NCBI GenBank assembly: GCA_017495165.1
Contig: JAFEII010000030.1
Span: 86,190-102,189 of the forward strand
DNA from: Hydromonas sp.
GTDB lineage: Bacteria > Pseudomonadota > Gammaproteobacteria > Burkholderiales > Burkholderiaceae
Direction of reading: 5' to 3'
DNA length: 16,000 nucleotides
The notes beneath the pieces are model-generated. The model was not told where the DNA came from. It saw only the letters and a list, made by a program, of their open reading frames with translations, and ran no database searches. The translations under genes were made by a program, and so were the position numbers. Positions 119 through 16,000 of this stretch are shown here, piece by piece; positions within the stretch are counted from its first letter, which is position 1; each line of letters opens with the position of its first letter.

Positions 119-2002
119 ATGTCAGAGTCCATGCAGCCTGAGAAAAACGGGTTTGATGCAGCCGCTTTTGTCGCCAGCCTGCCGCATTTACCGGGTGTTT
201 ACCGCCACATCGATGAGAACGATGTGGTTTTGTACGTGGGCAAAGCGCGTGACTTAAAAAAACGGGTCGCCAATTATTTTGCGCGTACCGAATCGTTAAG
301 CCCGCGCATCGCTTTGATGGTCAGCAAAGTCGTTCGGGTGGATGTGACCATCACGCGCACCGAAACCGAAGCGCTGTTGCTTGAAAACAATCTGATTAAA
401 AGCCTTGCGCCGCGCTATAACATCGTTTTTCGGGACGACAAATCCTATCCGTACCTCAAAATGACCGCCAGCACTTTTTCGCGCATGGTTTACTACCGTG
501 GCGCGGTGGACAAAAAACACCAATATTTTGGCCCTTTCCCCAATGGCTACGCGGTCAAATCGTCGATTAAGTTATTGCAAAAAGTATTCAAACTGCGCAC
601 CTGCGACGAAACCGTGTTTCGCAACCGCTCGCGTCCGTGCATGTTGCACCAAATCGGGCGGTGTAGCGCGCCGTGCGTGGGCTTGATTAGCGCTGAGGAT
701 TACGCGCAAGACATTGCCGCCAGCGTGCAATTTTTGCGCGGCGAGTCTGATGCGTTGCTGCAAAATTTTCAAACCCAAATGATGGCGGCGTCACAGGCGC
801 TTGAGTTTGAAAAAGCCGCTCAACTGCGCGACAAAATTGGCGCGTTGTCCAGCATGATGGCGAACCAATCGGTTGAAAGCACGGGCGATGATGTGGATGC
901 GGACATCATCGCCGTCGCCTGCGCCGATGCGCGCTATTGCGTGAATTTGGCCATGGTGCGCGGTGGGCGACATTTGGGCGACAAAGCCTTTTTCCCCACG
1001 CACACCCAAGACTGCAGTGCGCAAGATGTGGTGGATGCGTTTGTTGCGCAACATTACGCCGATGGCGTTGCGCCGTATGTGATTGTGGCCGACACCATGC
1101 CGTCTGCAGAGGTTTTGGAGATGCTCAATGACGTGGCAGGGCGCAAATTGTTGTGGGTCAAACAACCACAAACCCAACGCAAAACATGGCTTGAAATGGC
1201 TCAAAGCAATGCTCAGCTCGCATTGTCGCGCCGCATGCAAGAAGCGGGCAGCGCCAAAGTGCGCACCCGTGACTTGGCCACGCTGTTGCAACTCGATGAG
1301 TTTGGGCATGGTGACGAATTGGCGCGCCTGCGCATTGAATGCTTTGATATTAGCCATCATTCGGGCGAAGCCACTCAAGCATCGTGCGTGGTTTATCAAA
1401 ACCACGCCATGCAAAACGGTGAATACCGCCGATTTAATATCGCCGATGTGACGGCGGGCGATGATTATGCCGCGATGCGCCAAGTGCTGATGCGCCGCTA
1501 TGCGAGCATCATCAAAGGCGAGGGCGTCATGCCAGACGTGGTTTTGGTGGACGGCGGTAAAGGGCAAATCAGTATGGCGGTTGAGGTGTTTAACGAGCTT
1601 GGGCTCGATTTAAACCTGATTGTTGGGGTTGCAAAAGGCGATGGGCGGCGCGTTGGACTCGAAACTTTGCTATTTGCAGATGGACGTGCGCCCATAAAAT
1701 TGGGTAAACTGTCGCCTGCTTTAATGTTGGTCGCTCAAGTGCGCGACGAAGCGCACCGATTTGCCATTACAGGCATGCGCGCCGCTCGCGCCAAAGCACG
1801 TAATGTCTCAAGGCTTGAGGAAATCGAAGGCATCGGCGCCAAACGCCGTGCCGCATTGCTCCAGCGCTTTGGCGGCATGGCAGGGGTCAAAAACGCCAGC
1901 GTCCAAGACCTTAAAACCGTTGTTGGCGTATCGGCCAAATTGGCACAAGAGATTTATAAACAGTTGCATGAAGATGCGGGAAAATCAGATGAATTGGTCT
2001 AA
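119..2002 (+). CDS. uvrC: excinuclease ABC subunit C (UvrC)
   Basis: The ORF 35..2002 has an N-terminal GIY-YIG signature (GVYRH...[18 protein letters not shown]), a central UvrC-type region and a C-terminal helix-hairpin-helix region ([18 protein letters not shown]). The start is moved to the first ATG at 119 (MSESMQ...) because position 35 is a TTG with non-conserved-looking residues. ATG 131 is an alternative start. Confidence 0.93.
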
Positions 2003-3035
2003 GTTGGATTATTCAAAAACGCAGGTTCGCAAAGCGGGTGAAACGCTGGCAAAGAGCCTGACTGAAACCGACACCGATGACTTAGCGACGGCGATTGACG
2101 CTTATAAAGCCGCCTATGATATTTTGGCAAACTGGCGGGCGACGCATGCCTACCCGATGCAAACCATTTTGAATCAGTTGCGTAAAAAATCGTTGCAAAT
2201 AGATGATTCGGCAATTGTGGTGCAACGCTTAAAACGCTATCCGTCCATTTTAGCCAAACTGCAACGCGAACCGCACATGAAGTTAGATACCATGGAAGAT
2301 ATCGCGGGTTGCCGTGTTGTGCTGGACAATATTGAAAACGTGTATGAGTTGTGGGATGCGTTAAGCAAAAGCCGCTCAAGAAACAAGCTCAAACGCGCGC
2401 GTGATTACATCAAACAACCCAAACCTTCGGGTTATCGAGGTGTACACCTGATTTATACGTATCAAGGTAAAAAGAATGAATACGCAGGTTTGCCCGTGGA
2501 GTTACAACTGCGCAGCAAAGTTCAGCACTCATGGGCAACGGCGGTCGAAGTGGTGGGCACTTTTTTACAAGAAGCCTTAAAGTCAAGTCGCGGCAATCAA
2601 GACTGGTTGGACTTTTTTGAATGTGCGGGCGAGGCTTTTTACGCACTGGAAACCAAGAAGCCATTTGCGCGCGTTAAAACGTTGTCGGAAATGGTTGATA
2701 GCTTAAAAGTGCTCGCATTGCTTCCCGCTTTTGCGGTTGCCACCAATGTGTTGAGTGACCAATTGGCGCATAAAGCTGATTTTTATTTAATATCATTGGA
2801 TATTACCAAAAGACGCTTAAACTTTAAGCGGTTCGCTGAGCGCGATTTGGACAATGGGCTCAATTTATACGCCCAATTTGAGTCTGAGTTTAAGAATGAC
2901 CCGAGCAAAGATGTTGTACTTATCTCTGCCGAATCTGTTGAAGGCCTGCGTAAAGCCTACCCAAACTACTTTGCGGACACGAGCGATTTTGTGCGCAACC
3001 TTAAAACCGTACTGAAAGCCCCAAATGCCATTTAA
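1989..3035 (+). CDS. stand-alone RelA/SpoT-homologue (RSH) synthetase-domain protein with an uncharacterised ~150 aa C-terminal domain; candidate CapRel-like fused toxSAS
   Basis: The nucleotidyltransferase motifs of the RelA/SpoT synthetase domain appear in order: [11 protein letters not shown] (RxKxxxSxxxK, 2226-2258), DIAGCRVV (2298-), GYRGVH (2430-2447) and [17 protein letters not shown] (2499-2549). There is no HD hydrolase, TGS or ACT region. The upstream 76 codons of ORF 1761..3035 lie in an alternative frame of uvrC, so the start is set to ATG 1989 ([18 protein letters not shown]), preceded by GGGAA at 1978-1982. ATG 1968 and 1974 are alternatives. The C-terminal part carries YPNY (2958-2969). 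Confidence 0.8.
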
Positions 3036-3594
3036 TTTTCCGATTCTGCTCACGTGGGCACGTGTGATTGCGATTCCTTTGTTGGTCGCCATTTATTATT
3101 CTCCGTTTGGCGCGCTGGATGAGACGCTGCGCAACTCTTTGGCGGCAGGTTTGTTTATATTGGCGGCGATTACCGATTGGTTTGATGGGTTCTTGGCGCG
3201 TCGTTGGAATCAAACCAGCGCGTTTGGGGCGTTTTTAGACCCGATTGCGGATAAATTATTGGTCACCGCGTGTTTGATTGTGTTGGTGCACGAAAAGCAA
3301 GCGCACGGCTTGATTGCCTTGATTATTATTGGGCGCGAATTGGCCATTTCTGGCTTGCGTGAATGGATGTCGTCTATTGGCGCCCGCGCGGCGGTGGCGG
3401 TGAATAATTTGGGCAAATATAAAACTGCTGCGCAAATGTCGGCCTTGCCGATGTTGTTGCTCAATCGTGATGTTTTTGGGCTCGATTTTCACCTGGTTGG
3501 TACGTGGCTTTTGTATGTTGCGGCTGTGTTGACCGTGGTTTCGATGGTGGTGTATCTGAAAGCGGCTTGGCCAACAATTAAGGCGAATGCTTAA
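3025..3594 (+). CDS. pgsA: CDP-diacylglycerol--glycerol-3-phosphate 3-phosphatidyltransferase (PgsA)
   Basis: The CDP-alcohol phosphatidyltransferase motif is present (DWFDGFLARRWNQTSAFGAFLDPIADKLL), and the protein is multi-pass hydrophobic at 189 aa, a typical PgsA size. Its ATG lies 11 nt inside the end of the preceding gene. Confidence 0.9.
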   Translation: MPFNFPILLTWARVIAIPLLVAIYYSPFGALDETLRNSLAAGLFILAAITDWFDGFLARRWNQTSAFGAFLDPIADKLLVTACLIVLVHEKQAHGLIALIIIGRELAISGLREWMSSIGARAAVAVNNLGKYKTAAQMSALPMLLLNRDVFGLDFHLVGTWLLYVAAVLTVVSMVVYLKAAWPTIKANA

Positions 3595-5105: not shown

Positions 5106-5741
5106 ATGTCTACAAATTCACCCACACTTTCGTTTGACGCCATCATCCCGATTGGCTTTTTTTGCGGCCCAACCGAGTGGTTGGAGGCGTTGGATTTGCG
5201 CAAGCAGTCCAATCCATTTGACTGGGTCATCACCGATCTTGACCATGTGAGCGAGCTTATTGACAATCAGTTCCATGACTTGTTTGACGAGGCGCATTTG
5301 CTGAGTCATTCAAATTGGTGCAATGAAATGCGGATTGTGGATCACGACCATTATATGTTTCGCTTTTTTCATGATTTTCCTGCGGACATGTCGATTGCTG
5401 AGAAACTACCTGAAGTGAGGGAGAAGTACGAGCGGCGCATCACACGTTTTTACAACATGCTTAAGGATTCGCAGTCGCTGTTGTTTATTCGTTATGTTCG
5501 CAATGATGATGACGATGAGGCGCGCAAAATGACGCGTTTTATTGAGGTCATGACTGCTTTGAACCCCAACTTCAAACTCATCGTGATTAAAAATACCGAT
5601 TCCAAATGGGATGAGCGTCCGCATCAGGACAAAATATTGCGAATTTTTGAGGTTGAAAAAGACCCGCATGATTGCGTGAAGCGGCAGTTGCCAGAGGCGC
5701 TGCAACTGTTTTTGCAGAATGAAGTAAGCCTGACGGGTTGA
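5106..5741 (+). CDS. hypothetical protein, DUF1796-like (putative papain-like cysteine peptidase fold family)
   Basis: The N-terminal IPIGFFCGPTEW...SNPFDWVI and the later FFHDFP match my recollection of the DUF1796 family (G..C ... PFDW ... HDF). The start is set to ATG 5106, which has an AGGAG at 5095-5099. The upstream 45 codons of ORF 4971.. look non-coding. Confidence 0.55.
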   Translation: MSTNSPTLSFDAIIPIGFFCGPTEWLEALDLRKQSNPFDWVITDLDHVSELIDNQFHDLFDEAHLLSHSNWCNEMRIVDHDHYMFRFFHDFPADMSIAEKLPEVREKYERRITRFYNMLKDSQSLLFIRYVRNDDDDEARKMTRFIEVMTALNPNFKLIVIKNTDSKWDERPHQDKILRIFEVEKDPHDCVKRQLPEALQLFLQNEVSLTG

Positions 5742-15254: not shown

Positions 15255-16000
15255 TGATTTTGCAAGCAAAACAGTTGTCGATTCAGTACGGCGGTTCAAT
15301 GCTCGTTGAGCCATTTGATTGGACAGTTAACGCGGGCGAGAAATGGGCGATTCTGGGCGCAAATGGCGCGGGCAAATCAAGCCTTCTTCGCACGATTTGC
15401 GGCATGGAGACCGATCAGTACGAATCAGTTCTGTTTAATGAACAACCTCTAAAATCATTGTCGCCGCGAGCGCAAGCCGCGCATAGATTGTGGGTGCCGC
15501 AACGTTATGATGAGCCATTTAATATCACGGTTTGGCAGGCATTAAGCAGCTTGAATCAGGGCCGTTCAGAGGCACATTTGCAAGCGAGTCTTGAGGCGTT
15601 TGGCTTGCTAAAAATGCAAAATCATTGGGTGCATCAGCTTTCAGGTGGCGAGCGCCAGCGCTTAACATGGGCGATGGCGCACGCACATCAGCAACCGAGT
15701 ACGCAATTATGGTTGCTTGATGAGCCATTTGCAGCGCAAGATTTGGCGTGGCAAGTGCGTTTGTTGCGTTATTTAAAAGCGTTGCCGTGCGCGGCCGTCG
15801 CCGCCGTACATGATGTGAATCAAGTAGCCGACTTCGCCAGCCACGTGTTGATGCTCATTCCCAATGCAAACGGCGTGCACCGTGTCATGACAGGTGAAAT
15901 TGCGCAAATGATGCGCGCAGAGCAGCTCGAAGACGTGTACGGCGTGCCGTTTCATGCAATGCGCAGCGAGGATGGACGGTTTGGATGGTGGCGGATTTGA
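15254..16000 (+). CDS. btuD: ABC transporter ATP-binding protein (BtuD-like)
   Basis: Walker A (GANGAGKSS), ABC signature (LSGGERQR) and Walker B (LWLLDEP) are present. ATG 15254 overlaps the permease TGA by 1 nt, and GTG 15251 is an alternative start. The stop falls at the window end. Confidence 0.82.
   Translation: MILQAKQLSIQYGGSMLVEPFDWTVNAGEKWAILGANGAGKSSLLRTICGMETDQYESVLFNEQPLKSLSPRAQAAHRLWVPQRYDEPFNITVWQALSSLNQGRSEAHLQASLEAFGLLKMQNHWVHQLSGGERQRLTWAMAHAHQQPSTQLWLLDEPFAAQDLAWQVRLLRYLKALPCAAVAAVHDVNQVADFASHVLMLIPNANGVHRVMTGEIAQMMRAEQLEDVYGVPFHAMRSEDGRFGWWRI

Follow-up and report, generated by a model that had tools for sequence, protein, structure and literature searches.

What is a gene for a RelA/SpoT-type synthetase doing between uvrC and pgsA in a betaproteobacterial genome? 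The question is raised by a 16,000-nucleotide stretch of a Hydromonas sp. assembly (contig JAFEII010000030.1, forward-strand positions 86,190 to 102,189), here called the window and numbered from its first letter, in which the gene under study encodes a protein of 348 residues. We consider this protein to be, quite probably, a fused toxin-antitoxin of the CapRel type, belonging to the toxic small alarmone synthetases (toxSAS): a single polypeptide that would inhibit itself until triggered by a phage and would then abort infection as a tRNA 3'-CCA pyrophosphokinase.

1989-3035, plus strand: fused CapRel-family toxSAS toxin-antitoxin gene, so assigned by homology and family models; 348 amino acids plus TAA stop.

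Retranslation of this interval returned all of the synthetase motifs listed in an earlier, sequence-only reading of the stretch, namely RxKxxxSxxxK (R80-L-K82-R-Y-P-S86-I-L-A-K90), DxxGxR (D104-I-A-G107-C-R109), G148-Y-R-G-V-H153 and E171-L-Q173-L-R175 ... W182. That reading had further described a chain devoid of HD, TGS and ACT domains, with some 150 residues past the catalytic core that lack CxxC pairs and with a Y-P-N-Y about 20 residues from the C-terminus, and each of these statements holds: a Pfam scan of the protein, which is of small alarmone synthetase (SAS)-type length, finds RelA_SpoT as its sole domain (residues 79-184, E 1.1e-20) and none of the other three; about 150 residues extend beyond the core from about residue 208; the only two cysteines are C108 and C212; and Y324-P-N-Y327, encoded at nt 2958-2969, lies 21 residues before the C-terminus.

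Homology to an experimentally characterised defence protein extends over essentially the whole chain. In a phmmer search against all PDB sequences the Salmonella tRNA pyrophosphokinase CapRel (7ZTB/9ERV) ranked first, with E 5e-38 over residues 8-338, and the next match was RelQ at E 1.8e-10, RelQ and RelP aligning only over the catalytic core (residues ~76-185). Taking CapRelSJ46, the product of gene J46_0058 of Salmonella phage SJ46 (KU760857), as reference, BLASTP aligned residues 4-338 of the window protein with residues 11-366 at 31% identity (E 9e-49). An AlphaFold2 (AF2) model built on an alignment of 42 homologues, 46-84% identical to the window protein, reached a mean predicted local distance difference test score of 85.8 and a predicted template modelling (TM) score of 0.77, and features three N-terminal helices, a five-stranded toxSYNTH core, linker helices between residues 177 and 256, a β-β-α-β unit and C-terminal helices at 314-323, 325-328 (short, separate and located at YPNY) and 332-343. 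Foldseek matched this model to 7ZTB_B of the PDB along the whole chain (E 2.6e-23, TM 0.72/0.73, 360 columns), and to RelP and RelQ over the N-terminal half only, with a TMq of about 0.4. The CapRel-like architecture proposed from the letters alone is thus borne out by full-length homology, by alignment of the YxxY motif and by a whole-chain fold match, the superposition on CapRel that had been suggested as a check giving TM 0.72 against 7ZTB; the account given there of the CapRel literature is also correct (PMC9712102). Alignment and model together divide the protein, and the plus-strand sequence encoding it, as follows.

Residues 1-71 (1989-2201, plus strand): N-terminal helical region, with AF2 helices 10-21, 32-52 and 54-71.
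Residues 72-200 (2202-2588, plus strand): toxSYNTH catalytic core, with Pfam RelA_SpoT and a five-strand sheet in the AF2 model.
Residues 201-262 (2589-2774, plus strand): helical linker, or anchor 1, with AF2 helices 204-222, 229-238 and 241-256.
Residues 263-313 (2775-2927, plus strand): pseudo-zinc-finger domain, with β265-271, β276-282, α284-301 and β307-313; no cysteines.
Residues 314-331 (2928-2981, plus strand): switch region, with A323 and the YxxY motif aligned with A351, Y352 and Y355 of CapRelSJ46.
Residues 332-343, tail and stop (2982-3035, plus strand): C-terminal helix, or anchor 2, with AF2 helix 332-343; overlaps the start of pgsA.

The likeness to CapRelSJ46 lies in the single polypeptide of ~350-370 residues and in the order of its elements, from N-terminal helices through toxSYNTH, linker helices, pseudo-zinc-finger domain (pZFD) and YxxY switch to a C-terminal helix; identity is 25% in the N-terminal helices, 43% in the toxSYNTH core, 36% in the linker, 27% in the pZFD and 46% in the switch plus C-terminal helix, and the heptapeptide KAYPNYF is identical in both proteins and aligned residue for residue. 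The modelled topology of residues 263-343 fits the published description of the CapRel pZFD, namely three antiparallel strands in one sheet, a helix preceding the last of them and, holding this unit, anchor helices plus a helical extension at the C-terminus (PMC9712102). The two proteins differ in the length of the pZFD, which has 51 residues in the window protein and 63 in CapRelSJ46 (12 fewer), a 9-residue deletion falling in the β6-β7 loop that touches the capsid protein in CapRelSJ46; in the absence from the window protein of the 8-residue toxSYNTH insertion PSLDGGAT; in the sensor residues L280 and L307 of CapRelSJ46, which are not conserved; and in setting, CapRelSJ46 being prophage-borne whereas the window gene is chromosomal, within uvrC-pgsA of a Formosimonas-like betaproteobacterial host. 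Two further fused CapRels, CapRelEbc of Enterobacter chengduensis and CapRelKp of Klebsiella pneumoniae, were compared by description only: they share the fused architecture, with a C-terminal region that sets phage specificity, but belong to the enterobacterial clade and are about 70% identical to CapRelSJ46.

Residues of known function in CapRelSJ46 allow a closer comparison. There, R79 and R116 coordinate ATP, the G-loop residue Y155 is required in that Y155A abolishes defence, and Y352 and Y355 form the YXXY motif; substitutions at the interface residues A77, V338, L339, A341 and A351 lead to constitutive toxicity, as do Y352A and Y355A (PMC9712102). The same work found the N-terminal fragment to be toxic and the C-terminal fragment to rescue, and identified the activity as tRNA pyrophosphorylation and the trigger as a phage capsid protein (PMC9712102). 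Global alignment yields the following counterparts.

CapRelSJ46 A77: V78 of the window protein; the family alternates V/A.
CapRelSJ46 R79: R80.
CapRelSJ46 R116: R109.
CapRelSJ46 Y155: Y149.
CapRelSJ46 V338: V310, identical.
CapRelSJ46 L339: L311, identical.
CapRelSJ46 A341: S313; the family alternates S/A.
CapRelSJ46 A351: A323, identical.
CapRelSJ46 Y352: Y324.
CapRelSJ46 Y355: Y327.

R80, R109, Y149, V310, L311, A323, Y324 and Y327 are each conserved in 40-42 of the 42 homologues, V78 and S313 being conservative changes. Within the toxSYNTH core, the ATP-donor-site residues R80, K82, S86, K90, D104 and R109, the G-loop pair G148-Y149, and E171 and Q173 are invariant in all 42; the switch has P325, N326, Y327 and F328 in every homologue and Y324 in 41. 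Across the same alignment conservation is lowest at residues 271-300 and highest at 321-330, and such a combination of a variable pZFD with a hyperconserved YPNYF is as reported for CapRels. The N-terminal helical region contributes a further set of invariant columns, N48-W-R50-x-x-H53-x-x-P56, which align with QNFRELHLYP of CapRelSJ46. The equivalent region of FaRel2 recognises tRNA (PMC11782079), and by analogy the N-terminal helices of the window protein may do the same.

The C-terminal domain had been put forward in the sequence-only reading as the specificity module and possibly a novel one, and here the outcome is different. When the C-terminal 148 residues were used by themselves to search 1.84 billion cluster representatives, 1541 clusters matched at E <= 1e-3, and matches within full-length proteins always fell at about residues 190-350 of a chain of ~350 residues; shorter matches may be fragments or stand-alone antitoxins. 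This search and the alignment to CapRelSJ46 identify the domain as a divergent, shorter copy of the family's pZFD and not as a new fold. It is the usual sensor and antitoxin of the family, presumably offering its sensor surface in the pZFD, and its specificity is probably different from that of CapRelSJ46.

Family models lead to the same assignment. PDC-S33, a PADLOC model, aligns with both the window protein (1.9e-116) and CapRelSJ46 (7e-87) from end to end; because the latter is so matched, PDC-S33 appears to be in effect the fused CapRel family. PDC systems are "phage defence candidates" drawn from genes that lie inside BREX, DISARM and type I restriction-modification (RM) loci (bioRxiv 10.1101/2024.01.29.577857); a literature search of papers and supplements found this general definition of PDC only and no mention of PDC-S33 by name. 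PHROG 4773, a family of no assigned function, matches the window protein over its full length at 1.5e-90, so that both profiles, computational families without an assigned mechanism, cover the protein end to end. With CapRelSJ46 as best solved relative and the common PADLOC profile serving as proxies, membership in the fused CapRel subfamily is supported.

These data are consistent with a model in which, at rest, the C-terminal pZFD would be folded back onto the N-terminal toxSYNTH domain, with the Y324-P-N-Y327 switch placed between R80 and R109 and plugging the adenine pocket of the ATP (pyrophosphate-donor) site, leaving the enzyme silent. Upon infection, a phage protein or a phage-host complex would bind the surface formed by the pZFD and the anchors and hold the protein open; the opened toxSYNTH domain would transfer pyrophosphate from ATP onto tRNA at its 3'-CCA end, which would block aminoacylation and translation and thereby abort the infection. 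We infer a tRNA substrate because CapRelSJ46 pyrophosphorylates tRNA and because the YxxY/pZFD mode of inhibition goes with tRNA targeting: neutralisation of the donor site by YxxY and pZFD accompanies tRNA-targeting toxSAS, while in producers of (pp)pApp it is the acceptor site that Tis1-like domains block (PMC11782079). The bipartite toxSAS systems (FaRel2:ATfaRel2, PhRel:ATphRel and the unfused CapRel:ATcapRel) likewise have a toxSYNTH domain neutralised at the ATP-donor site by a YxxY pZFD, and pyrophosphorylate tRNA CCA ends, a property that extends to the window protein by analogy only; they differ in possessing a separate antitoxin gene that acts in trans, where the window gene is one open reading frame (ORF) with no small gene adjacent. 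As to the trigger, release by a capsid protein, as described in the sequence-only reading, is right for CapRelSJ46 but does not stand as a general rule: SECΦ27's major capsid protein (PMC9712102) and Gp54 of Bas11 (PMC11578894) have both been identified as CapRel triggers, and CapRelEbc is activated by host FtsZ in complex with T7 Gp0.4 (PMC13423816). Since the list includes Bas11 Gp54 and T7 Gp0.4-FtsZ, a capsid trigger is not to be assumed here.

The gene lies in a housekeeping block of order Lon-uvrC-X-pgsA-hemW, in which it occupies position X and overlaps both neighbours.

119-2002, plus strand: uvrC, the upstream flank, with Pfam UvrC domains; its last 14 nt overlap the start of the CapRel gene.
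1978-1983, plus strand: GGGAAA, resembling a Shine-Dalgarno element, within the uvrC coding sequence and 5 nt ahead of the ATG at 1989.
3025-3594, plus strand: pgsA, the downstream flank, encoding a CDP-alcohol phosphatidyltransferase (Pfam CDP-OH_P_transf, E 9e-37); its first 11 nt overlap the end of the CapRel gene.

These overlaps leave no space for a small adjacent antitoxin ORF, in agreement with the sequence-only reading, and the overlapping frames suggest that the gene is co-expressed with uvrC and pgsA. The exact protein is encoded on nine contigs (from two NCBI metagenome-assembled genomes (MAGs) and from Logan assemblies), each time in the Lon-uvrC-X-pgsA-hemW order and with the ORF intact, and syntenic orthologues occupy the uvrC-pgsA slot in two related loci, L086 (84% identical) and L006 (a Formosimonas sp. 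MAG, 56% identical), which indicates a betaproteobacterial source within the Burkholderiaceae. The L006 orthologue has the same ATGAAT start, an in-frame TAG 12 nt upstream of it and AGGAAA at the equivalent place 5 nt upstream, whereas the other in-frame ATGs of the window, at 1968 and 1974, are confined to its own lineage. As L006 shares the ATGAAT, the upstream in-frame TAG and the (G/A)GGAAA element, the ATG at 1989 is supported as the conserved start, and GGGAAA at 1978-1983 is a likely ribosome-binding site. A metagenome scan with PgsA (PgsA identity <=61%) recovered ~60 more distant loci with uvrC-pgsA synteny, in which the two genes usually lie 0-200 nt apart and none of which carries a CapRel homologue; the CapRel gene is hence an insertion into an old, conserved uvrC-pgsA pair. 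A truly close genome with an empty site was not found in that scan. Scanning the window for an integrase, a tRNA or an Rfam element near the gene found none; Rfam gave no match anywhere in the window at gathering thresholds, and nothing credible near the gene in E-value mode. Promoter and terminator consensus matches around the gene did not exceed shuffle expectation in number and are therefore uninformative. A 13-nt perfect direct repeat, ACCTTAAAACCGT, in the uvrC tail (1908-1920) and the CapRel tail (2998-3010), 1090 nt apart, was considered as an insertion scar and rejected. Such a repeat arises in only 1.5% of shuffles, but it is probably due to chance because it shrinks to 8 nt in L086 and L006 and because its NLK codons are family consensus. 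Further along the window, at 5106-5741 on the plus strand, in its lowest-GC part (about 0.44), lies a DUF1796 gene for a putative papain-like cysteine peptidase, which is not found downstream of hemW in L006 and is replaced there in L086 by an unrelated 174-residue ORF, making it a second variable gene near the CapRel slot.

The inserted gene diverges faster than its flanks in both syntenic relatives.

CapRel identity to L086: 84%, with flanks at 94-97%.
CapRel identity to L006: 56%, with flanks at 82-86%.

Since the ratio of nonsynonymous to synonymous substitution (dN/dS) is 0.089 against the 84%-identical orthologue, the gene is maintained under purifying selection. Relative to L086, dN is 0.09 in CapRel and 0.03 in the flanks (uvrC, pgsA and hemW), and dS is 1.0 in CapRel and 0.33-0.66 in the flanks; within the gene, dS rises to 1.4-1.7 in the centre, two to four times its value at the ends (0.38-0.46) and in the flanks, and nucleotide identity falls to 75-81% across 2201-2900 where the flanks are at 82-99%, mostly >85%. 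These crude estimates are compatible with replacement of the gene centre by a divergent allele through recombination, and also with the alternative of a simple acceleration in rate; they suggest an older history for the centre than for the locus around it, as recombinational exchange of alleles would produce. The linker (residues 201-262) is the segment most divergent between the syntenic orthologues, at 69% identity to L086 and 34% to L006. The 5' end of the L006 orthologue (L006:5965-6040, JBOFII010000009.1) contains an imperfect ~33-nt tandem duplication encoding (S/P)KLEHSK(A/T)(R/K)V twice, as MNRSKLEHSKARVH-WPKLEHSKTKVR, which may be the scar of a recombinational allele replacement in the conserved gene start, or a simple duplication.

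Beyond this slot, two peptide patterns recovered a relative in 232 species-representative genomes, spread over Gamma-, Beta-, Alpha- and Deltaproteobacteria, Cyanobacteria, Vicinamibacterales, Chloroflexi and several DPANN and Methanosarcinales MAGs. Among 150 neighbouring ORFs of 46 loci there was no recurrent partner gene, the largest family count being 3, and Hma, DISARM, BREX, type I RM, Old, PIN and integrase genes occurred as scattered neighbours; the census is consistent with a self-contained single-gene module that resides only sometimes in defence islands. Full-length relatives of 35-41% identity are present in MAGs labelled Nanoarchaeota, Woesearchaeota, Micrarchaeota and Methanosarcinales (L036, L041, L042, L044, L046, L053-L055, L058, L059, L065, L075, L077, L080 and L083), one of them in the complete Woesearchaeota chromosome CP060218.1. 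If true, and taking the MAG labels as given, CapRel-type genes in DPANN archaea would widen the reported range of the family. The Vicinamibacterales MAG CBDDJQ01 holds three copies of the homologue on three contigs (L048, L051 and L052), two of them ~3.17 kb from a contig end and with identical scores, which suggests that the homologue there rides on a repeated mobile element.

Several observations weigh against reading the window protein as a phage-triggered, self-inhibited tRNA pyrophosphokinase. The AF2 model deviates from the open crystal form 7ZTB by a root-mean-square deviation (RMSD) of 6.4 Å, and neither TM-score nor RMSD separates the open from the closed state; a docked YPNY in the ATP pocket has its one hint in the short separate helix 325-328 of the model. 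The 31% identity to the sole characterised clade, the shorter sensor domain and the loss of L280 and L307 permit no inference on the trigger. The prophage, plasmid or defence-island setting typical of CapRels is not found here, the 16-kb window containing no mobile-element genes, and defence genes adjoin only a minority of the homologues in the 46-locus census. Because embedding in an operon of this kind is unusual, the most serious alternative, albeit an unlikely one, is a fused CapRel that has been domesticated or answers to a host cue: coupled to uvrC-pgsA, it would respond to a perturbed host factor or a stress signal, or persist as a self-stabilising, addictive toxin-antitoxin, and would thus differ in trigger and role and not in biochemistry. 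With overlaps of 14 nt and 11 nt at its ends, the gene has no intergenic space that could hold a promoter or terminator of its own, and the consensus scan stayed at shuffle level; the slot is occupied in three related lineages; and the requirement of CapRelEbc for FtsZ with T7 Gp0.4 (PMC13423816) demonstrates that host factors can share in CapRel sensing. On the other hand, a hyperconserved switch, a variable pZFD and divergence faster than that of the flanks are what has been described for phage-sensing CapRels, the genes behind the PDC-S33 model came from within BREX, DISARM and type I RM loci (bioRxiv 10.1101/2024.01.29.577857), and some homologues adjoin Hma, DISARM, BREX, Old or integrase genes.

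Other alternatives change the chemistry or deny the gene a function. That the protein is a toxic alarmone synthetase, killing by nucleotide depletion through (pp)pApp (FaRel/Tas1-like) or (pp)pGpp (GRel/Pag1B-like), we regard as decidedly improbable. All toxSAS do share the toxSYNTH fold and the ATP-donor residues (PMC11782079), and sequence alone does not fix substrate specificity with certainty; yet the closest relative, CapRelSJ46, pyrophosphorylates tRNA (PMC9712102), neutralisation of the donor site by YxxY and pZFD is reported only for translation-targeting toxSAS (PMC11782079), the adjacent genes include no partner of the S-adenosylhomocysteine hydrolase, Tis1-like or NAP kind, and in place of the acidic DMK domain of Pag1B the protein has a C-terminal pZFD (bioRxiv 10.64898/2026.04.06.716658). 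RelQ and RelP are tetrameric (p)ppGpp synthetases, and a non-toxic housekeeping SAS of the RelQ/RelP/RelV kind, making (p)ppGpp for the stringent response, is what the database names of the homologues ("(p)ppGpp synthetase" or "RelA/SpoT domain-containing protein") and the lone RelA_SpoT hit in Pfam would imply. The resemblance is real for the catalytic core fold, with a TM of about 0.65-0.79 relative to target length, but RelQ and RelP lack the N-terminal helices, the pZFD and the YxxY, and are matched only over residues ~76-185, at about 1e-10 compared with 5e-38 for CapRel. The window protein scores 58.1 bits against the NCBIfam RelQ equivalog (GTPPhKinYjbM), whose cut-off is 320, and 27-30 bits against the RelA and SpoT equivalogs, with cut-offs of 728-947; next to a housekeeping length of 200-230 residues it carries 70 extra N-terminal and 150 extra C-terminal residues, the latter homologous to a proven antitoxin and sensor domain. 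Membership among the housekeeping SAS was rejected on these grounds and is very improbable. Least probable of all is that the gene is the decaying or inactive remnant of an earlier insertion: apart from the atypical location nothing more specific speaks for it, while the ORF is intact in nine independent contigs, the catalytic and switch residues are all conserved, and the dN/dS of 0.089 points to purifying selection.

Returning to the reading as a fused CapRel defence protein, a broader scenario may join locus and sensor, which we offer as a tentative idea of low probability. The uvrC-pgsA junction of Formosimonas-like betaproteobacteria would be a fixed CapRel slot, expressed by read-through and translational coupling from a DNA-repair and lipid-synthesis operon and lacking a promoter of its own; divergent alleles would be swapped by homologous recombination through the conserved ends of the gene; and the shortened pZFD would serve a new kind of trigger, neither a capsid protein nor any of the other enterobacterial CapRel triggers identified to date.

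On sequence grounds, the gene is an uncharacterised member of the known fused CapRel family, already caught by PDC-S33 and PHROG 4773, and its interest is modest, residing in the distance from the characterised clade, the remodelled sensor loop, the doubly overlapping insertion between uvrC and pgsA and the signs of allele turnover. For annotation, the present label "(p)ppGpp synthetase / RelA-SpoT domain protein" would change to probable CapRel-type abortive-infection toxin-antitoxin. Tying PDC-S33 and PHROG 4773 to the experimentally understood fused CapRel would moreover supply a mechanism for a family present in at least 232 species-representative genomes, archaeal MAGs included. To our knowledge, all characterised CapRels come from one enterobacterial clade; the window protein, 31% identical, from a freshwater-type betaproteobacterium, its switch intact, its sensor loop remodelled and its gene located outside mobile elements, could serve to test the reach of the autoinhibition and trigger logic, and the way in which a toxic gene embedded in a housekeeping operon is expressed safely.

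Two further observations concern the remainder of the window. Downstream of zapA (11125-11436, minus strand) there is a ~180-nt gap at 10946-11124, a position that in many proteobacteria is the site of 6S RNA (ssrS); no Rfam match to 6S RNA was obtained in this gap even at E <= 1. At 12036-12232 on the plus strand, a cobalamin riboswitch match covers the full model (1-189) with E 0.0011 and 24 bits, where the Rfam gathering threshold is 31.5. Directly downstream of the match comes an ORF for a TonB-dependent receptor (12236-14248), and after it come two more ORFs, the first large and hydrophobic (14163-15254), the second bearing a Walker-A-like motif (15218-16000). Judged from their sequences, these two resemble a permease of the BtuC/FecCD type and an ABC ATPase, respectively. 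The match is probably a genuine, if divergent, B12 riboswitch in control of an operon for B12 uptake.

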